From assembly GCA_013152295.1 (NCBI GenBank), contig JAADGQ010000112.1, positions 1,977-65,976 of the forward strand: a DNA stretch of 64,000 nucleotides, written 5' to 3'. Of this stretch, positions 1,774-10,974 are shown piece after piece. The first letter of the stretch is position 1, and the number at the start of each line of letters is the position of its first letter. The position numbers and the translations under genes are program-made. The notes beneath the pieces are model-generated. The model ran no database searches and was not told where the DNA came from. It worked only from the letters and a program-made list of their open reading frames with translations. The stretch is from Gammaproteobacteria bacterium (GTDB lineage Bacteria; Pseudomonadota; Gammaproteobacteria; JAADGQ01).

Positions 1774-2214
1774 ATGACAGAACTCGTTCGCTTCGGCGTC
1801 TCCATCGACGGTGACCTATTGGAGCGCTTTGATGAACTTATTGATCAGAAAGGGTATAAAAATCGCTCTGAAGCGCTACGCGACCTGATTCGTGAGCATA
1901 TGGTCGAAGAGGAGTGGAGTTCAGATCAGGAGACCGTTGGTACCATTACGCTTGTTTACGATCACCACACGCGCGATCTCTCCGCTAACCTCACCCACTT
2001 GCAGCACTCTTTTACCGGGGAGATTATCTCTGTGTTGCATGTTCATTTGGACCACCACAACTGTCTCGAAGTGCTCGTCGTAAAAGGCAAGGGGACATTG
2101 TTGCGTCAACTCGCTGACCAGTTGGCAAGCACGCGGGGTGTCAAACACGGCCAGCTAACTGCTACGACGACTGGCGCCGCCATGCCGGCTTCGGGGCACG
2201 ACCACTCGCACTAG
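1774..2214 (+). CDS. nikR: nickel-responsive transcriptional regulator NikR (ribbon-helix-helix plus ACT-like metal-binding domain)
   Basis: RHH N-terminus ([38 protein letters not shown]). C-terminal domain carries the Ni-site residues ([26 protein letters not shown]). His-rich C-terminus. SD gaggta precedes the ATG. Divergent from xseB and directly upstream of a Nik-type ECF transporter. Confidence 0.85.
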
Positions 2215-2310
2215 TCCGGTGTGCCTTGTGCAGTGCTTGCGTTTATGTCAGTGGCTGGTAGCACGAAATACAAATTAGCATGACCGGCTGTTGACCCGCA
2301 TAGAGCCATA

Positions 2311-2337
2311 GTGTTACTGTTTGTTAAAACGTAGCAC
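2311..2337 (+). promoter_or_regulatory. candidate NikR operator: inverted repeat GTGTTAC-N13-GTAGCAC
   Basis: Imperfect palindrome read directly: gtgttac (2311-2317), a 13-nt AT-rich spacer, then gtagcac (2331-2337; one mismatch to the perfect complement gtaacac). It sits between nikR and the transporter operon and overlaps a possible -35 ttgacc (2291-2296) and -10 region. My recollection is that non-enterobacterial NikR boxes have a GTGTTAC-N13/14-GTAACAC form, but I cannot verify this here. Confidence 0.45.
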
Positions 2338-2388
2338 CGAAAGGCAGTCGCTCCATCCTTACAAACATTTGCGGCTGCCTTGGTAGAA

Positions 2389-2431
2389 CCGGGCGATTTT
2401 TTAGCCCTCTTTTTAATCGCCCGGTTTTTTT
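2389..2431 (+). terminator. stem-loop followed by a T7 run in the leader of the nik transporter operon
   Basis: ccgggcgatt (2389-2398) pairs with aatcgcccgg (2415-2424), a 10-bp stem around a 16-nt loop, followed by ttttttt (2425-2431). It lies 44 nt upstream of the first transporter gene. Confidence 0.5.
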
Positions 2432-2474
2432 ACGTTTTTCGAATACTCCCTTCAAAATACGGTTGCAATAATTA

Positions 2475-3161
2475 ATGAAGAGAAAACGCACGATAACCGG
2501 CTTTTTTTCATTGCGGGGAAACAGGGCTCGCTGCTTTCTCCGATTAACGACCTTCCTGGTTTTTTTTGTCGCCGTGGTGCCTAGCGCGCTTGCGCATAAG
2601 GTCAATCTGTTCGCTTACGCTGAAGGTGACGAGGTCTTTGTCGAAGGCTATTTTGCCGATGGAAAGAAAGCTCAAAAAAGCACTGTTACTGTTTTTGATG
2701 GTAACGTTCTCGTTGCCAAGGGCGTCACTGATGACGAAGGGCTGTTACGCTTTACTCCACCGAAAAAAGTTCCATTAAGGATCACCCTCAATGCCGGTAT
2801 GGGGCATCGGGCTGAATTTCTGCTTGCCGCTGATGAGTGGGGCGATAGCGATGCGAGTAGCGGCGTAGTAACGAATAGACCGCCGACAACCGATAAGTCA
2901 TCGAGTAGTGTAAATGTTGCGCCGACTGTTGATGCAGCCCCCCTCGTCGCAGATGCTTTGCCTCCGGTGAGTCGCGCAGAGCTACACAGTATGATTACAA
3001 AGGCGGTCAAAGAGGCGAATAAGCCGCTTGTCAGAAGCCTTACCGATATGCAGGAGCACGCCTCTTTTTCTCAAATTGTTGGTGGCATTGGTTTTATTTT
3101 TGGCATACTCGGCGCTGCCTTCTATTTTAAAGAGAAGAAGGGAAAAGCTGGCGCTGAATAG
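2475..3161 (+). CDS. bitopic membrane/periplasmic accessory component of the Nik ECF transporter (NikL/NikN/NikK-like)
   Basis: 228 aa. Basic N-terminus plus hydrophobic signal-anchor (FLRLTTFLVFFVAVVPSALA). A beta-rich periplasmic segment (HKVNLFAYAEGDEVFVEGYFADGKKAQKSTVTVFDGNVLVAKGVTDDEGLLRF). An Ala/Pro/Ser/Thr linker. A C-terminal TM helix (IVGGIGFIFGILGAAFYF) with a KEKKGK tail. It is the first gene of the nikM-Q-O operon, a position where NikK/NikL/NikN-type auxiliary subunits occur. Confidence 0.5.
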   Translation: MKRKRTITGFFSLRGNRARCFLRLTTFLVFFVAVVPSALAHKVNLFAYAEGDEVFVEGYFADGKKAQKSTVTVFDGNVLVAKGVTDDEGLLRFTPPKKVPLRITLNAGMGHRAEFLLAADEWGDSDASSGVVTNRPPTTDKSSSSVNVAPTVDAAPLVADALPPVSRAELHSMITKAVKEANKPLVRSLTDMQEHASFSQIVGGIGFIFGILGAAFYFKEKKGKAGAE

Positions 3162-3219
3162 TTGGTCGCTGGACTTCACATTTGAACTTTACGTTTAGGG
3201 AACGGGTGAACAGTTTATT

Positions 3220-3897
3220 ATGCATATCTCTGACGGTATTCTCTCAGCTCCGGTTCTGGCAGCAGGTTTTGCAGGCACTGCCATATTGGCAGCAGCCACT
3301 CTGCGCAAGATGGATATGGATGAAATTCCGAAGATATCCGTTATCACCTCGGTCTTTTTTATCGCCTCGTTGATCCATATTCCCGTTGGCCCCTCAAGCG
3401 TTCACCTTATTTTGAATGGGTTGGTTGGTATTGTGCTCGGCTGGCGAGCGTTTCCCGCCATCATGCTTGGCATTATTTTGCAGACGCTGCTATTTGGCCA
3501 TGGCGGGCTTACTGTCATCGGTGTTAATTCGGTGATGCTGGGTGGCGGCGGTTTGCTTGCTTACATGGTTTGGCAGCTTAGGCATCGCTTTACGCTGCCT
3601 AAAAAGGAGGTTGTGTTCGGTGCGCTGGCTGGCGCAACAGGGATCATCTCATCAGGCATAATACTCGCGCTGGCACTTATCACTACAGGTGACGAGTTTA
3701 TGGCTACTGCCGCTTTTGCACTAGTTGCCCACGTGCCGGTCATGATTGTGGAGGCGATTGTCGTTGGCGCTTGCGCTGGCTACCTTGCTAAAGTGAAACC
3801 GGAGGTGTTAGCTGGGTATATCAGGCCAACACCGAGAGCATCGAAATCGACAGCCAAAGCAGCGGTAGATGGTAAGCAGGACGATACAACTCCTTGA
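3220..3897 (+). CDS. nikM: ECF transporter substrate-capture (S) component NikM/CbiM
   Basis: Begins with MHISDG, the invariant Met-His N-terminus of CbiM/NikM that coordinates the metal. Polytopic membrane protein of 225 aa. No separate or fused NikN domain. Confidence 0.85.
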   Translation: MHISDGILSAPVLAAGFAGTAILAAATLRKMDMDEIPKISVITSVFFIASLIHIPVGPSSVHLILNGLVGIVLGWRAFPAIMLGIILQTLLFGHGGLTVIGVNSVMLGGGGLLAYMVWQLRHRFTLPKKEVVFGALAGATGIISSGIILALALITTGDEFMATAAFALVAHVPVMIVEAIVVGACAGYLAKVKPEVLAGYIRPTPRASKSTAKAAVDGKQDDTTP

Positions 3898-3930
3898 ATG
3901 CAGCCCACGCTCTAGTCTACGGATTTCACT

Positions 3931-4719
3931 GTGCCACTTGATATCGACCGTTACTCCCACCTCGCTTCACCGTTGCAGCGCTGGGATCCCAGGTTTAAGT
4001 TGCTCTCTCTTGGCAGCTTTGCTTTCGGTGTCGCGCTTGTTAAAACACTTCCATTGGCTCTCGTTGCTCTGCTTGTCGCTCTCATTTTACTCAAGCTAAG
4101 CAGCTTGCCTTACCACTTTATTGCGCATGCTATGAAGTGGATTATCTTTTTTCTGTTGCCTTTTTTCTTGATTATGCCGCTGAGCTACCCCGGTGAGGCG
4201 GCTTACCATATCTTGGGTTTGCCGTTCGCGTGGGAGGGGTTGCGGCTCGCCACGCTGATTTTTATCAAAGCCAACGCTATCGTATTGACCACTTTCGCCA
4301 TTTTCGGCTCGTCGCGTTTTGATATATCAATGATTGCACTGCAACATCTTAAATGCCCCAAAGTGCTGGTGCAGATGACTCTGTTTACCTACCGCTACAC
4401 CTTTGTCTTTCTGGAGGAGATGAAGCGTATGCAGGTGGCGATGCGTGCTCGGGGGTTTGTTCTGAAAACGGATATGTATACGCTGCGCACCATGGGCAAC
4501 TTTGTTGGCACGCTGTTGGTGCGCAGTTTTGAGCGCACTGAGCGCGTCTATAACGCCATGCTCTCCAAAGGCTATCAGGGTGAGTTCCATACCTTGGTGC
4601 GATTCAAGTCAGATCGTAGTGATTACATTAAAGCCGTTATCGTGTTGGGTATTACCATCGCATTATTAGTGGGTGATCTGTCGGGAGGCTTTACGCCTGC
4701 GATACAGGGCTGGTACTAG
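3931..4719 (+). CDS. nikQ: ECF transporter transmembrane (T) component NikQ/CbiQ
   Basis: GTG start. 262-aa polytopic protein with the CbiQ signature region (ARGFVLKTDMYTLRTMGNFVGTLLVRSFERTERVYNAMLSKGYQG). Confidence 0.85.
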   Translation: MPLDIDRYSHLASPLQRWDPRFKLLSLGSFAFGVALVKTLPLALVALLVALILLKLSSLPYHFIAHAMKWIIFFLLPFFLIMPLSYPGEAAYHILGLPFAWEGLRLATLIFIKANAIVLTTFAIFGSSRFDISMIALQHLKCPKVLVQMTLFTYRYTFVFLEEMKRMQVAMRARGFVLKTDMYTLRTMGNFVGTLLVRSFERTERVYNAMLSKGYQGEFHTLVRFKSDRSDYIKAVIVLGITIALLVGDLSGGFTPAIQGWY

Positions 4720-4788
4720 TCTCGCCAATGCTCACTTTTTCCGGTGAAAGCCGTTTATTCCAAGCCGCCCAATGCAAAAGGGGGACGC

Positions 4789-5796
4789 GTGTCAGCACCC
4801 ATCGCCATAGAAGTTAAAAATGTATTTTTCACCTATCCCGACGGTCATGACGTACTGAAAGATGTTTCGTGCAGCATCAAGCAGGGCGAGAAAGTTGCGC
4901 TAATTGGCCCCAATGGTGCGGGCAAGTCCACTTTCATGAGTCTGCTTAATGGCGTTGCCATGGCCACCGAGGGTCAGGTATTTATTGATGGTAAAGAGGT
5001 CATTCGCGACAACCTGATCGAAATACGCCGCAGGGTCGGTATCGTATTTCAGGACCCCGACGATCAGCTATTTTGTCCGACGGTCTATGACGATGTTGCT
5101 TTTGGTCCGCTGAATCTTGGGCTTGCAGCAGAAGAGATCGAAGCGCGCATCGAAGAGTCATTGGCGTTGGTTGGGCTGGAGGGGTTTGGTGAGCGCTCTT
5201 CATATCACCTCTCGTTTGGCGAACGCAAACGCTTGGCGTTGGCAACGGTACTCTCTTATCGGCCTGAGATTTTGGTCTTTGATGAACCCTCCACCAATAT
5301 GGATCCACTCAACCGGCGCAAGTTGATAGAGTGGTTGAAGCAGACCGATAAAACCATTCTGCTCTGCACCCATGATCTGGATATCGCTCTGGAGGTCTGC
5401 AGCCGTTGCCTGGTTCTGACCGAAGGCGAAATTGTTGCCAACGGCCCTGCTTCTGAAGTTTTGCATGATAAGCAGTTGCTGGAGTCGAATAATCTGGAGC
5501 TGCCTCTGGCGCTCATCACTCACGAAATACTGCACAATATTCTGCATGCAGAGAAGATGGATGAGGAGCACCGCTCCATCATTGGTGATTTTCTCCACAC
5601 TCACCGTCATGCCCACGGCTCTGATGACCACTTGCACTATCACTTGCATGCTCATCCCCATGATCATGGCCATCTGCACGACCACTCGACGGAATCGCAT
5701 AGCCACCACACGCACGACCACGGTGATGATCCGGCACATGCCAGTATCCCCCATACTCATGAACCAGCAGATCAAACAACCACAGACAAAAAATAG
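4789..5796 (+). CDS. nikO: ECF transporter ATPase NikO/CbiO with a His-rich C-terminal extension
   Basis: Walker A (GPNGAGKST), ABC signature (LSFGERKRLALA), Walker B (LVFDEPST). I prefer the GTG at 4789 because a strong SD aagggggac lies just upstream; the track ORF starts at 4744. The C-terminal roughly 65 aa are extremely His-rich (HTHRHAHGSDDHLHYHLHAHPHDHGHLHDHSTESHSHHTHDHGDD...). Confidence 0.85.
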   Translation: MSAPIAIEVKNVFFTYPDGHDVLKDVSCSIKQGEKVALIGPNGAGKSTFMSLLNGVAMATEGQVFIDGKEVIRDNLIEIRRRVGIVFQDPDDQLFCPTVYDDVAFGPLNLGLAAEEIEARIEESLALVGLEGFGERSSYHLSFGERKRLALATVLSYRPEILVFDEPSTNMDPLNRRKLIEWLKQTDKTILLCTHDLDIALEVCSRCLVLTEGEIVANGPASEVLHDKQLLESNNLELPLALITHEILHNILHAEKMDEEHRSIIGDFLHTHRHAHGSDDHLHYHLHAHPHDHGHLHDHSTESHSHHTHDHGDDPAHASIPHTHEPADQTTTDKK

Positions 5797-5852: not shown

Positions 5853-6491
5853 ATGCGGGAAAAAGAGAAGAGCACGCAAATTATCTACGTCAGGCATGGC
5901 GTTACAGATTTTCCGCTTGACCGTATCTATTGTGATGACCGAGAAGACCCCGCGCTTAACGAGTTGGGTGTTGCCCAAGCACAGCAGGCGGCGTTGCGCC
6001 TCAAAGAGACACAAATCGATCTGATTGTTGCCAGCCCTTATCTGCGTACACGCATGACGGCGGAAGCCATCGCGCAAGCAACGGGGGCGCCGCTTGAATT
6101 TAACAAAGCGCTACGAGAAAGAGGTTTTGGTATCTGGGATGGGCTCTACTTCAATGAAATTGAAACAGGTTATCCCGAAGATTTTTTACGCTGGAAACAG
6201 AACCCGGCTGACTTCAAGCCTGAAAATGGTGAATCTGTTCACGACCTTCTGCGCAGGGTTTCATCGGTCATTAGTGACATCACGACCCATCACAAAGGGA
6301 AGTGTGTGGCAGTGGTCGCGCACGTTGGCCCCATCCGGGCTTGCCTCTGTGATGCTTTGAACATACCAATCAAACACTATCGGCAGCTCTGTGTCGATTA
6401 CGCCTCATCGAGCCGGGTTGATTACGGTAAAAGCCAAAATAACTTTATATACATGAACCAGACACACGCCGTCGCAGACAACCATCCGTAA
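5853..6491 (+). CDS. histidine phosphatase family protein (phosphoglycerate-mutase-like)
   Basis: RHG catalytic motif near the N-terminus (IYVRHGVTDF). Length and later conserved His (VAVVAHVGPIRA) fit the PGM/CobC-like histidine phosphatase fold. Confidence 0.7.
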   Translation: MREKEKSTQIIYVRHGVTDFPLDRIYCDDREDPALNELGVAQAQQAALRLKETQIDLIVASPYLRTRMTAEAIAQATGAPLEFNKALRERGFGIWDGLYFNEIETGYPEDFLRWKQNPADFKPENGESVHDLLRRVSSVISDITTHHKGKCVAVVAHVGPIRACLCDALNIPIKHYRQLCVDYASSSRVDYGKSQNNFIYMNQTHAVADNHP

Positions 6492-6552: not shown

Positions 6553-9500
6553 CTAACTGAGGTTGCTTCTCCAGACCCGTGTTGCAGCGATCAGTGTCAG
6601 ACTGATCAGCAGCAGTGGATTGACAGGGCCACCGCCACCGCCACCACTGCTACCATTCGTACTGCTGCCCGTGTTGGAGCTGCTGTCGCCGCTACCGCTA
6701 TTGCCTGCGTTGCCGGAGAGACCGCTGGGATCGACGATGATGCCGTTGACCACGCCGTCGGCGTCATCTGCACTGCCATCGACCAGGGTTATGGTCGCCT
6801 TCTGGCCGTTGTAGCTGACATTGCCATTGAACGGAGTGATGGTTCCATTGGCTTCATCATATTTGTGCCAGCTGCTGTTTTCAGGCAGTACTTCAGGAAA
6901 GTAGACATCAACTTGTACTTCGGCAGGGTTGTTCGCATCAACGGGCAACCCGGTGATGTAGAAGCTGAACAGCCCGAAAGGCAGATCGAGGTCGCTGCTG
7001 GCCGGAGTGTCCCCGCGGGAAAATGAAGAGACACAGTTGATTAAGCCTGCCGAGGTGCGGAAGCCGATCGCACTGGCGCGTTCGGCGTCACGCAGGTTAC
7101 ACATCCCCTCTAGGTCGTCATCGGCACCGTTGTTGTCGGTATCGACAACTTCGTTGATTTCGTAGCGATCATCAACGCCATCGTCATTGGCATCATTGTT
7201 ACTGCCGGAGAGGCTGAAGTTCACTGCAGCTGACCACTCAGACATCAGCTCATTACTATTGTAGTGTCGTGTGCGAGCCCAATAGCTGGTGCCTGGTTTG
7301 AGCAGGCCCAGTGGAACAATCAGGTTGCCACGGCTATCAATATCACGCTCTAGAATGAGCGTGTCAAAGCTCTGGCTGGTGCTGATTTGCCACAATGAGC
7401 CTGCCAGTGCCTGGTTGTCGGGGCCGGTGAACTCACCGCTAAAGGTAAATACCCAGAAGTTATGATTATTACGAACCTCTGATGTCGCGCTCAAGCCGCC
7501 GGGTCGTGCGGGGCGGTGTTGCGCTACCGTGTCGTTACCATTGACTGGATCGCTACCGTAGGCTACTTCGTCGCCATCACTGTCGCCGTCGCCGTCGGAA
7601 TCGCTGTTGTTGGGGTTGCTGCCCAAGGTGAACTCCTCGCGGTCGGTGAGGCCATCGCTATCACTGTCAGCGCTGCCGTCGAGAGAGAGGTCACCGAACT
7701 GCTCAATCTCCCAACTGTCGGTGAGTCCGTCGCCATCGCTATCGTTGGCACTTGGCTGCGCGTCAACAGTGACCGTTACGGTTTTATTGACATTGCCACC
7801 ATCACCGCTGCATGACAGTGTGAAGGTTGCATCCTGAGTTAGTGGTCCGACCGTTTCGGACGAAGCGCCTGCTGTTCTGTTGCCGCTCCAGTCACCGCTT
7901 GCTCGGCAGTTGCTAGCGTCGGTTGCTGTCCAGCTCAGCACAGTGATGCTGTTGAATGCGACATTGCTTGGGTCGGCGCTGAGGCTGAGGGTCGGCATAG
8001 GCGCTGGCGTGGGTGGTGGTGGGGGAGGCGTGGTGGTATCGCCAGGAGGCGTAGAGGACCCTCCTCCCTGACCGCTCTCTATTTTCAGCTGTGGGTTAGC
8101 GGACAGGTCGGAGCTGTTGAGCATGCGATTATGCACTTCAACTGCCAGCACGTTGCTGCCGTTGACCAGGCTGCTAATAGATGCATCCAGATTGAACGCC
8201 TCCGGGGTGGCACTGGCTTCGTTGTTGCCGTTGGCCGGTGTGTTGTTGTCTACTGCGCCGACGGGCATGTTGCCGCGAGCGATCTCTACGCCATTGAGGT
8301 AGGCGACGAAGCCATCATCGAAGTGGATGTTAAGCGCCATACCCGCAACGGATGAGGCGTCGGTAACGCTAAACGTTTTGCGCAGATAGACGCTGAGGTA
8401 GCCGTCCTGCATGTCGTTGAGTACGGTGGCATCATCGTTATCGCCATAGCCGAACCCGCTGGGACCAGAGAGCCATGCAGAGTCATCAAAAGCAGCTGCT
8501 GCCCAATTCGTGCCAGGATTGCTGGTGCCTTTGAAGTAGCGCCAGGTGTCACCAAAATCGATGGCTGTCGTGATTGCTGATGGTGCACCGACTTCAATGC
8601 TGAGGTCTTTGCTGGTTGTGGTGCCAGCGGCATCTGTCAGTGTTATCGCAAAGGCATGCAATCCCATTGTGGTCGCAGTGCCACTGATCAAGCCGCTACT
8701 GGCATTGAGTGATAGCCCCGCAGGCAGTTGGCCACTGCTCACCGACCAGCTCAATGGTGTTTCAGTGCCCACGCCGCTGAGCGTTGCGTTATAAGACTCA
8801 CCCTGTAGTGTGTCTGCCAATACGGTAGTGGAGATCTGTGGTGCTGTGTAGGCGTAAGTTTGAAAGGTGTAGCCCTCTGTAGCCATAGCATTTCCCGATC
8901 CACTCAGATCCTTGGCATCAATGCTCACGGCAACCTGCTTGGTGAAAGCAAAGTTCTGAGGCGGGTTGTAGGTTACCGTATAGGCGCTGGCCGAACCCGT
9001 GACGGTAGTGTTCGGATAGCTGCCTGCTTGCGCGCCGTTGTAGATCACCTGGCCATCTATACGTACCACCAGCGAGTTGATATCAACACCCTCTTCAGCG
9101 TCAGAGATGCGAAACGAGACGTTGCTGTCGACGGCTACTTCGTTCGCACCAGAGAGAGGTGAGCGGTTGGTTACCATGGGTGGAACCGATCCTGGGTTCG
9201 CCGGAAACTCATATGCGCCCACGTCAGCGGAGCCTTGTGAGCGTGAGTTGAGGAAGTAATCGTCATTGAGCACGTTGGGTATATTGGTGCTGCTTGCATC
9301 GATGGCGACGCTGCCTGCCAGCAAGCGAAAATCGAAGTTGCTGGGATCAACAAACAGCGGATCGTTGCTGTCACCGCCGCCGATAGGGTTTTCATCAATG
9401 GAGGGAGCGCCCGCATTCAGGCCGTAGTAGAGGTTATTGGTGAATCGTGCTGTTCCCCAGCCACTGCTCACACCTGATCCAACATATGTATCATTGGTGT

Positions 9501-10974
9501 CCTGACCGTAGTAGACGATGTTGTTAGCGATGATTAAGTTGGCGCTGGTGAGGGTCCAGGTATTCGCAATAATATTATTATGGCTGCCGCTGCGTAGCTC
9601 ACAAAATACGTTGTTGAAGACGCGAAAATTTGAGGGGTTTATGGAGTTGATTCTGAACTCCGAGCCGCCTGCGTTGCAGACAATATTGTTATAAAAATAG
9701 GCATCATCGGTTTTATTGGAGGCATTGATACCGTGTTTGGCCACATTGAGCACCAAGTTGTGGTGCACACGGTAGCCGCGGATGTATTTGCTCAATGATC
9801 CGTAGGATTGAATGCCGTTACCACCCTTGATGTCGTGAATATAATTGTAGGCAACCTCGATATCTTCAACGCTGGTGGGGTCCCCATCGTTATCAAAATA
9901 GATGCCGTGGTTACGTTGACCATCCCCCCAGATGTCGTGGATATGGTTGCCGAAAATCTTTACCCGATTGCCGTTGCCTGCGATACCACCGGAGCGCGCT
10001 GAGCGGCTGGTAGCGTCAGTTTCAAGGGTGAACCAGTCAAACAGTTCGTTATTGATGACGCGCCAATCGTTGGAGCCCCACTGCAGGTTGATGGGGCCTT
10101 CGACGTTTGAGCCGTCACCGCCGGAGATGCGCAGCCCTGCGATGACGATCCAGTGAGCTTCGTTGGCGTTGCCGCGGTTATGAATGCCGCCGGCACGTTG
10201 CGGAAAGATGTGTACGTTTTCTCCGGGGTAGCCAACGATAGATATCGGACCACTACCCAATGTGCCGTCGGGCGCGCTGCCGGAGTTGCCCGTTGTGCGC
10301 AAAAAACGATCGTTAGCGCCTTCGTCTTTCCAGTCACCACCACGCAGCACAATGAAATCGCCCGGACTGACATCATGCCAAACGCCGATGCGATCAGGGG
10401 TTTGCACGCGGCGGAACGGTTTGTTGATGTTGCCTATCTCACCCGTGGCATCATTGCCGTTGAGTGATACGTACCAGATCTTGCCCGGCTGCACGGTGAA
10501 CGTATTGTCACTGTTTGAACTAACGCCGCCGACTTCGACGCGGACCGCACCGCTGCTGACAGCGCCGACCTGAACGGAGATCTGTTGTACGTCGTTGCGG
10601 CCGTAAGAGCTGCCCATGTATTTGTACTCGGCGACCTCCCGACTACCAATATAGACCTTGGTGTTGCTGCCAAGCCCTGAGGGGTCACCCAAATTTATGC
10701 CGAATATGGAGAGGTAGGCGCCGTTGTTGTTTTCACCACCTGAATTGGGGCCGCTGACGACATCGGTGTAGAGCACTTGCGGGGTTCCTGATGCGGCCAG
10801 GGTACTGCTTATGGGTAGCGCAATCAGTAGCAGTGAAGCGAAAAAAACAGCCAAAAAAAACGGCGCATTGGTTACCCCTTGCCTGGTTGCAGAGGGTTTA
10901 ACCAATGCGCCGTTTTGATGAGCGGGTGTTAAGTTGGTGTCAGACTTAACGTTGGTGTGTAACGAAATTTTCAT
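6553..10974 (-). CDS. giant secreted multi-domain protein: signal peptide, parallel beta-helix, cadherin-like Ig, LamG-like jellyroll, Pro-rich linker, Ig-like, Asp-rich Ca-binding repeats, FN3-like, anchor-associated domain, Ser/Gly linker, Gly-run/TM/basic C-terminus
   Basis: 1473 aa. SD gaggaag sits 9 nt before the ATG. Hydrophobic signal segment (FFLAVFFASLLLIALPISSTLAA). Repeated PbH1-type beta-helix rungs (HNLVLNVAKHGINASN, FYNNIVCNAGGSEF, VFNNVFCELRSGSHNNIIANT, IIANNIVYYG, FTNNLYYGLNAG). A putative Ig/cadherin-like segment (LSWSVSSGQLPAGLSLNASSGLISGTAT). A LamG-like segment (LNIHFDDGFVAYLNGVEIARG...LAVEVHN). PPPPPPTPAP linker. DSDGDGLTD and DSDSDGLTD thrombospondin-type-3-like repeats. 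The C-terminus is GGGGGGPVNPLLLISLTLIAATRVWRSNLS. Confidence 0.8.
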   Translation of the reverse strand: MKISLHTNVKSDTNLTPAHQNGALVKPSATRQGVTNAPFFLAVFFASLLLIALPISSTLAASGTPQVLYTDVVSGPNSGGENNNGAYLSIFGINLGDPSGLGSNTKVYIGSREVAEYKYMGSSYGRNDVQQISVQVGAVSSGAVRVEVGGVSSNSDNTFTVQPGKIWYVSLNGNDATGEIGNINKPFRRVQTPDRIGVWHDVSPGDFIVLRGGDWKDEGANDRFLRTTGNSGSAPDGTLGSGPISIVGYPGENVHIFPQRAGGIHNRGNANEAHWIVIAGLRISGGDGSNVEGPINLQWGSNDWRVINNELFDWFTLETDATSRSARSGGIAGNGNRVKIFGNHIHDIWGDGQRNHGIYFDNDGDPTSVEDIEVAYNYIHDIKGGNGIQSYGSLSKYIRGYRVHHNLVLNVAKHGINASNKTDDAYFYNNIVCNAGGSEFRINSINPSNFRVFNNVFCELRSGSHNNIIANTWTLTSANLIIANNIVYYGQDTNDTYVGSGVSSGWGTARFTNNLYYGLNAGAPSIDENPIGGGDSNDPLFVDPSNFDFRLLAGSVAIDASSTNIPNVLNDDYFLNSRSQGSADVGAYEFPANPGSVPPMVTNRSPLSGANEVAVDSNVSFRISDAEEGVDINSLVVRIDGQVIYNGAQAGSYPNTTVTGSASAYTVTYNPPQNFAFTKQVAVSIDAKDLSGSGNAMATEGYTFQTYAYTAPQISTTVLADTLQGESYNATLSGVGTETPLSWSVSSGQLPAGLSLNASSGLISGTATTMGLHAFAITLTDAAGTTTSKDLSIEVGAPSAITTAIDFGDTWRYFKGTSNPGTNWAAAAFDDSAWLSGPSGFGYGDNDDATVLNDMQDGYLSVYLRKTFSVTDASSVAGMALNIHFDDGFVAYLNGVEIARGNMPVGAVDNNTPANGNNEASATPEAFNLDASISSLVNGSNVLAVEVHNRMLNSSDLSANPQLKIESGQGGGSSTPPGDTTTPPPPPPTPAPMPTLSLSADPSNVAFNSITVLSWTATDASNCRASGDWSGNRTAGASSETVGPLTQDATFTLSCSGDGGNVNKTVTVTVDAQPSANDSDGDGLTDSWEIEQFGDLSLDGSADSDSDGLTDREEFTLGSNPNNSDSDGDGDSDGDEVAYGSDPVNGNDTVAQHRPARPGGLSATSEVRNNHNFWVFTFSGEFTGPDNQALAGSLWQISTSQSFDTLILERDIDSRGNLIVPLGLLKPGTSYWARTRHYNSNELMSEWSAAVNFSLSGSNNDANDDGVDDRYEINEVVDTDNNGADDDLEGMCNLRDAERASAIGFRTSAGLINCVSSFSRGDTPASSDLDLPFGLFSFYITGLPVDANNPAEVQVDVYFPEVLPENSSWHKYDEANGTITPFNGNVSYNGQKATITLVDGSADDADGVVNGIIVDPSGLSGNAGNSGSGDSSSNTGSSTNGSSGGGGGGPVNPLLLISLTLIAATRVWRSNLS

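Follow-up and report, generated by a model that had tools for sequence, protein, structure and literature searches.

A probable NikR-repressed, NikL-type ECF nickel importer locus in an uncultured gammaproteobacterium

Genes of the nik locus and identity of the NikL subunit

We examined a 64-kb stretch of contig JAADGQ010000112.1 from an uncultured gammaproteobacterium (the window), which carries a cluster of five open reading frames (ORFs), all on the + strand, that correspond to nikR, nikL, nikM, nikQ, and nikO. The cluster is a real and intact locus for an energy-coupling factor (ECF) nickel importer of the NikL type, which has already been described, and it very probably encodes a NikR-repressed importer of ECF group I, NikLMQO. 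The first gene, nikR (1774-2214; 146 amino acids ending in ...SGHDHSH), encodes the nickel-responsive ribbon-helix-helix repressor, which scores 207.5 bits with NCBIfam NF003381 (cut-off 105) and also matches Pfam RHH_1 and NikR_C. It is followed by nikL (2475-3161; 228 amino acids), which encodes the auxiliary subunit of the S unit and matches NCBIfam NF058648, and by nikM (3220-3897; 225 amino acids with the N-terminus MHISDG), which encodes the substrate-binding S component (Pfam CbiM PF01891, 160.5 bits; NCBIfam NF004905, 219.9 bits). The remaining two genes are nikQ (3931-4719; 262 amino acids), which encodes the ECF T component (Pfam CbiQ, 113.9 bits; TIGR02454, 136.4 bits), and nikO (4744-5796; 350 amino acids), which encodes the ECF ATP-binding cassette (ABC) ATPase (Pfam ABC_tran PF00005, 106.8 bits; ECF ATPase TIGR models, approximately 230 bits). 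The scores for NikR, CbiM, CbiQ, and the ATPase lie well over the curated cut-offs of Pfam and NCBIfam. The ORFs and family scores thus confirm the initial annotation of this DNA in two respects, as it had described nikR followed by a four-gene operon and had assigned the operon to a NikR-linked transporter of the Nik/Cbi type. No plasmid match was found when a plasmid or mobile-element origin was considered.

The initial annotation had also stated that the operon contains neither a fused nor a separate NikN, which likewise holds. The gaps between nikL, nikM, nikQ, and nikO are 58, 33, and 24 nucleotides, which leaves no space for a separate nikN inside the operon. There is also no unassigned ORF within the operon, and hence no nikN between the transporter genes, although this result covers the operon only, as the scan for NikN did not extend to the remainder of the window. 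Within NikM, the Pfam CbiM match spans residues 2-195 and the last 30 residues are hydrophilic, which indicates that no NikN is fused to its C-terminus.

The 228-residue product of the first transporter gene had been described as a non-canonical first subunit with the topology of an enlarged NikL or NikN. We found instead that it is an ordinary NikL of normal length, which is a known stand-in for NikN. The protein matches the curated model NF058648, named "NikL family nickel/cobalt ECF transporter subunit" (ECF_sub_HI1622), with an E-value of 5.6e-46 and 156.8 bits (cut-off 100), and the match is full-length, covering profile positions 2-180 of 180. When conservation within the family was gauged on 28, 88, and 144 sequences, its hallmarks, which are a hydrophobic N-terminus, an AxA-HK junction, an AGMGH motif, and a C-terminal glycine-zipper transmembrane helix, were all present in the window protein. 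Genomic context agrees with this assignment: nikL adjoins nikM, nikQ, and nikO without nikN, and the same adjacency occurs in most of 80 related loci that were taken from reference genomes and classified with iterated hidden Markov models (HMMs). The initial annotation had correctly listed NikK and NikL as known alternative auxiliaries but, in light of the NF058648 match, had failed to recognize this protein as one of them. Both genes were defined in 2004 as substitutes for nikN in some nikMQO operons (PMC545781), NikKMLQO was presented as an alternative to NikMNQO by Zhang et al. (PMC2667541), and NikK or NikL in place of NikN is also described in PMC3945884. The system is written NikM(K)LQO in a 2024 comparative study, in which K is marked as optional (PMC11247825), and the Haemophilus influenzae transporter is named NikLMQO in a review (PMC7055735).

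The alternative that this gene encodes a new, non-canonical auxiliary subunit, which would define a new variant of Nik/Cbi ECF transporters, draws on the public record, where the identical protein from a Gammaproteobacteria metagenome-assembled genome (MAG) is entered as the "hypothetical protein" GXP10_07285, and on our Pfam search, which returned only a sub-threshold bMG3 match. It is refuted by the over-cut-off, full-length match to the NikL model and has hardly any probability left. The family is already in Pfam, with at least 259 NikL homologues carrying PF27549, and several JGI records call NikL homologues "nickel transport protein." An exhaustive profile search found 670 clusters at 50% identity with E-values of at most 1e-30 and 2,755 clusters with E-values of at most 1e-10. 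Homologues are 190-250 amino acids long, and the window protein is therefore not enlarged but typical of the family in both length and architecture. We suggest that GXP10_07285 be annotated as NikL and the locus as a NikR-regulated NikLMQO nickel importer, which is conceptually a routine assignment.

We also compared the protein encoded at 2475-3161 with the other auxiliary families that the initial annotation had named as candidates. NikL was matched, CbiN was not, and the protein does not belong to the DUF4198 family. The CbiN result weighs against a NikN-like part for NikL: no similarity to CbiN (PF02553) was detected for the window protein at E-values of up to 1, nor for the C-terminal module of NikL and the split ORFs described below at E-values of up to 10. 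Homology between the NikL beta-domain and NikK/DUF4198 was rejected, because the hhalign alignment is confined to the signal peptide and the AxA-H junction, and a Pfam match with an E-value of 0.047 over 40 residues was rejected as evidence for it.

Several known systems share this composition. Brucella abortus BAB1_1384-1388 and Synechocystis sll0381-sll0385 (NikKMLQO/NikKLMQO) contain the same L, M, Q, and O components and no NikN, and the nikR...K-L-M-Q-O locus of Ca. Tenderia electrophaga contains the same families as the window. Compared with the NikKMLQO and NikKLMQO systems, the window lacks nikK and has nikR co-oriented and directly upstream. The role of nikL-containing clusters in nickel import rests on two mutants: a Brucella nikO mutant loses nickel-dependent urease activity (PMC2868824), deletion of the whole nikKLMQO cluster of Synechocystis abolishes hydrogenase activity (PMC5904137), and excess nickel rescues both. 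H. influenzae HI1622 is the name-giving member of NF058648, to which the window NikL belongs. In H. influenzae, regulation is exerted by NimR, a MerR-type protein (PMC7055735, PMC9909328), whereas the window has nikR and a NikR box instead; the H. influenzae operon is written with a K in other papers. The NikMNQO, Nik(MN)QO, and CbiMNQO systems share the M-Q-O core with the window. In such canonical group I systems, the M component needs a small extra membrane protein (PMC3945884, PMC7689651). The window, in contrast, has neither NikN nor CbiN, and its NikL contributes an additional periplasmic beta-sandwich of 80 residues. In the analysis of Zhang et al. (PMC2667541), NikM from K/L-type systems forms a separate branch.

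Operon control and the transported metal

The 260-nucleotide spacer between nikR and nikL contains a candidate NikR operator on the + strand, GTGTTAC-N13-GTAGCAC (2311-2337), which differs by one mismatch from GTGTTAC-N13-GTAACAC; the published NikR consensus is GTGTTAC-N13/14-GTAACAC (PMC545781). No other site in the 64 kb matches with two or fewer mismatches, and chance alone would give 0.04 matches. Among 82 related loci, 12 have a similar box ahead of nikL or nikK, and one of these boxes, in a sister locus, is perfect (L030). An extended -10-like element, TGtTAAAAC (2322-2330), falls within the spacer of the NikR box, and we infer from its sequence that it is the operon promoter and lies under the box. 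Downstream, the + strand encodes a structured leader (2341-2433) in which inverted repeats form a hairpin (2341-2381), then a 14-bp stem (2385-2428), and then a U-run. The predicted RNA fold of 2326-2480 has a free energy of -49.8 kcal/mol (z = -5.47), which none of 200 shuffled sequences equaled. A riboswitch or other known RNA in the nikR-nikL spacer was considered and rejected, as there was no Rfam match: no Rfam element reached the gathering threshold in the window, and the cobalamin riboswitch gave no match in 2150-2550 at E-values of up to 10. The 14-bp stem and U-run have the look of a terminator or attenuator, and the element could be an attenuator of the operon or the terminator of nikR.

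We aligned the window NikM to TtNikM2 (PDB 4M58), for which the roles of the ligand residues have been described (PMC3945884). Met1, His2, and His62 (equivalent to His67 of TtNikM2) are conserved, as are the Gln, the GxGG motif, the Asn, the His, and the Glu; every nickel ligand of the solved structure is retained, and the ligands are identical to those of TtNikM2. Because the NikM ligands are kept, a NikR box is present, and a B12 riboswitch is absent, nickel is the likely substrate, although such systems can also carry cobalt.

NikO ends in a histidine-rich C-terminal tail (5590-5793) with 22 His in 68 residues (FLHTHRHAHGSDDHLHYHLHAHPHDHGHLHDH...). A similar tail, with the core FLHAHRHAHG..H.H.H.H.H, occurs in nearly all intact NikO proteins of related loci with K-L-M or L-M order, and it is also found on the double-length NikO of Desulfobacterota. 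NikO proteins without the tail belong to loci with K-M-L order and to a few Desulfobacterota loci. The tail could be a cytoplasmic segment that receives or buffers nickel.

Several observations weigh against reading the locus as a NikR-repressed nickel importer. The candidate promoter is weak by consensus, and a terminator-like hairpin lies within the nikL leader. The NCBIfam name for the M subunit is "cobalt transporter CbiM" (NF004905), and transport of both metals is possible in such systems. Downstream of nikO lies a gene for a CobC-like phosphatase, and no nickel enzymes were found among the large ORFs of the window. One alternative is a cobalt importer, in which a NikL-type system has been recruited for B12 synthesis, as has been proposed for a few proteobacteria. 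The NCBIfam equivalog names of both the M and Q subunits say cobalt, and NikK1ML1QO orthologues located beside B12 genes or riboswitches have been described (Zhang et al., PMC2667541). However, nikR lies directly upstream with a NikR box in the spacer, the cobalamin riboswitch is absent, no other B12 gene occurs among the window ORFs that were scanned, and the His-rich tail of NikO is typical of nickel-handling proteins. The adjoining phosphatase gene (5853-6491, + strand, 56 nucleotides 3' of nikO; Pfam His_Phos_1, 185.8 bits) scores 138.2 bits with the CobC model TIGR03162, which favors cobalt, but this is under the cut-off of 162.9, and another phosphatase model, NF005567, gives a higher score of 150.4 bits. 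The same adjacency recurs in eight other loci, which also favors cobalt. On balance, a dedicated cobalt importer is improbable, and we retain nickel as the likely substrate of NikLMQO.

The phosphatase gene may be co-transcribed with nikO. A His_Phos_1 gene directly after nikO or nikR is found in nine loci in all (the window, L021, L024, L026, L036, L040, L049, L054, and L056) and has no obvious link to nickel.

Absence of a linked nikK

The only deviation of the locus from the described type is that it has no linked nikK, which is mildly unusual but represents a common minor variation. No ORF for NikK (DUF4198, PF10670) was found in the 64-kb window, whereas an iterated NikK HMM found 59 in the related loci. 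Most of these loci have the order K-L-M-Q-O or K-M-L-Q-O, often with nikR, and the L-M-Q-O core lies next to nikR in dozens of genomes. When we considered the 57 loci with at least 3 kb of DNA upstream of the operon, nikK was missing from the DNA around the locus in 15. On a tree of NikM and NikQ, the K-less loci fall into at least five lineages, one of which is a clade of eight genomes. In the sister clade of the window, all six loci carry nikK(+) nikR(-) nikLMQO(+), with nikK just upstream of a reversed nikR. The window thus appears to be derived from this arrangement through inversion of nikR and loss or relocation of nikK.

These data bear on an alternative that is compatible with the NikLMQO assignment, namely that a NikK (DUF4198) encoded elsewhere is needed to complete the transporter, which would then be a standard NikKLMQO system with an unlinked nikK. 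Three points that count against a self-sufficient NikLMQO lead in this direction: the sister-clade loci all carry nikK; the literature mostly reports K plus L, so that NikL alone may not suffice; and a NikK could lie on another contig. Moreover, almost every NikL was found by Zhang et al. to share its genome with a NikK (PMC2667541), unlinked genes are documented, as in Desulfovibrio vulgaris, in which nikMQO is separate from both nikK and nikL (PMC545781), and NikK is highly conserved (65-87% identity), which suggests that it is important. The evidence on the other side includes the absence of a DUF4198 match anywhere in the window, the recurrence of K-less loci across lineages, including the clade of eight, and the literature notation that already marks K as optional (PMC11247825). 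In addition, the one candidate that could be traced belongs to another organism. This candidate, P0177, came from more than 7,700 NikK homologues, mostly unnamed, and was rejected as a NikK of the same MAG because it derives from a different organism with a full locus of its own. We place the probability that an unlinked NikK completes the transporter slightly below even.

We also considered whether K-less loci encode an alternative type of NikK. This possibility was rejected, as no other secreted protein is shared next to the operon; the conserved neighbors are moaC and moaE. Six of the NikK-less loci (L009, L012, L017, L021, L036, and L049) have an uncharacterized membrane protein of 216-259 amino acids encoded right after nikO (e.g., L036, 11402-12052). 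This protein has no Pfam match and is absent from the window. In the same group, a P-type heavy-metal ATPase is encoded between nikO and nikR, on the other strand.

NikL modules and a proposed route of nickel to NikM

The initial annotation had described an auxiliary protein with an N-terminal signal anchor, a beta-rich periplasmic domain, a linker, and a C-terminal transmembrane helix with a Lys tail, and this topology was reproduced by AlphaFold2. The model features a hydrophobic helix (residues 17-37), a beta-sandwich (43-117; predicted local distance difference test (pLDDT) above 90), a disordered linker (126-161), and a C-terminal helix (167-226), the last part of which is a glycine-zipper transmembrane segment followed by a Lys-rich tail. 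The beta-domain retained a pLDDT of 87.4 when modeled alone. Mapped onto the + strand of the window, the signal peptide or signal anchor (residues 1-40) is encoded at 2475-2594 and ends in ...PSALA, with cleavage predicted just before His41. The periplasmic, seven-stranded beta-sandwich (residues 41-120) follows at 2595-2834 and contains the invariant His41, which is predicted to be residue 1 of the mature protein, as well as Asp62-Gly63 and Gly110-His111. The low-complexity linker (residues 126-161; 2850-2957; pLDDT below 50) varies in length and is unalignable among homologues. The membrane module (2973-3152) comprises a juxtamembrane helix (residues 167-197; K-A-V-x-E-A-x-K-P-L-V-R), the glycine-zipper transmembrane helix (residues 198-218; GGIGFIFGILG), and the Lys tail.

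Conservation was assessed with 144 diverse NikL representatives, which have a median identity of 33% to the window protein. His41 is kept in all 142 that could be aligned at this position, and His111, which lies in the AGMGH hairpin, is kept in all 144. Within the membrane module, Gly206, Gly210, and Gly213 each occur in 143 of the 144, and Pro184 occurs in 136. Of 119 close homologues, 118 have Ala at position -1 of the signal-peptidase site; position -3 is Ala, Val, Thr, Ser, or Gly, and the h-region of the signal has a mean hydropathy of 1.87. Cleavage before His41 would thus fit the -3/-1 rule, and His41 would be the mature N-terminus if the signal is cleaved. No significant fold match to the beta-domain was found in the PDB, and Foldseek gave a weak match to Zcp (TM 0.58, E-value 0.02-0.03). 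Short hairpins and loops connect the strands of the model, whose directions would therefore be expected to alternate. One pole of the sandwich would then hold the N-terminus along with the B-C loop (Asp62-Gly63), the D-E loop (Thr85, Gly89), and the F-G hairpin (Gly110-His111).

The start of NikL can be read in two ways. The annotated ATG at 2475 yields a presequence of 40 residues, compared with a family median of approximately 26, and an in-frame TTG at 2511 yields one of 28. Both starts lack a clear Shine-Dalgarno sequence, and the mature protein is identical either way.

In Desulfobacterota (L063-L082; e.g., L071, 7965-8330 and 8327-8644), two adjacent genes take the place of a single nikL. 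The product of the first is a beta-domain of approximately 110 amino acids that is secreted, ends just past (A/S)GMGH, and covers NikL profile positions 2-99. The second encodes a protein of approximately 100 amino acids that has a signal sequence of its own along with the conserved helix and the glycine-zipper transmembrane segment, and covers profile positions 131-180. These split forms indicate that NikL is a fusion of two modules that can exist separately. We propose, by purely functional analogy with CbiN, that the membrane module acts as a NikN-like activator and that the beta-domain serves as a tethered nickel catcher. The extracytoplasmic loop of CbiN is positioned over the pocket of CbiM and is needed for transport (PMC7689651).

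NikL resembles NikK/DUF4198 proteins, such as IsDUF4198 and Zcp of Neisseria gonorrhoeae, in being secreted and beta-rich and in having an invariant His at the signal-peptidase site. In the related loci, NikK has an invariant AxA-HF junction, which is the same design as in NikL. In IsDUF4198, Ni2+ is bound by the N-terminal His together with His18, with a dissociation constant of 18 nM (PMC12537917), a report in which NikL is unmentioned. NikL differs from NikK in that it is one third the size, is anchored in the membrane, and has its second His 70 residues away rather than 17. The pattern of conserved residues raises the possibility that NikL is a nickel-capture protein itself and not a mere substitute for NikN, with His41 and His111 forming an N-terminal-histidine (brace-like) Ni2+ site. 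We regard this proposal as tentative and put it somewhat short of an even chance. No biochemical study of any NikL protein and no test of NikL alone was found in the literature, which also weighs against assigning it such a part. If the proposal is true, NikK, NikL, and NikM would all use an N-terminal amine together with a His imidazole, and in nikK-less operons such as that of the window, NikL alone would capture nickel.

In the mechanism that we propose for the NikLMQO importer, NikL would fill the place that NikN or CbiN occupies in canonical systems. Its beta-sandwich, carried on the flexible linker, probably captures Ni2+ with His41, as the predicted mature N-terminus, and His111, and hands it to the N-terminus of NikM. 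The juxtamembrane helix and the glycine-zipper transmembrane segment probably pack on the periplasmic face of NikM and enable metal loading, in the manner of the CbiN loop for CbiM. NikM, as the S component, would hold Ni2+ in square-planar geometry through the amino group of Met1, the amide and imidazole of His2, and His62, with NikQ as the T component and NikO as the ATPase of the importer. When cells are replete with nickel, NikR would bind the box at 2311-2337 over the likely promoter and turn the operon off. The initial annotation had posed as a question how metal is handed to Met1-His2 of NikM. This question stands, but it applies to the whole NikL/NikK class rather than to this variant alone. 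Three by-products of the analysis bear on how Ni2+ is loaded onto the buried NikM N-terminus across K/L-type ECF transporters: approximately a quarter of NikL-type loci have no linked nikK, NikL consists of two separable modules, and an invariant His is located at its predicted mature N-terminus.

Two nikL genes among the related loci are orphans, with no nikM within 8 kb (L003, 8007-8624; L028, 4535-5155). The former sits between a pilT-like gene and recQ, and both have a NikR-type box at -43. NikL in such loci may also work with a distant transporter or independently of one.

Downstream in the window, a 1,473-amino-acid ORF on the - strand (6553-10974) converges on the nik locus. Its product has a signal-peptide-like start, a Gly/Ser-rich stretch, and a hydrophobic C-terminus, features suggestive of a giant protein that is secreted or exposed at the surface.

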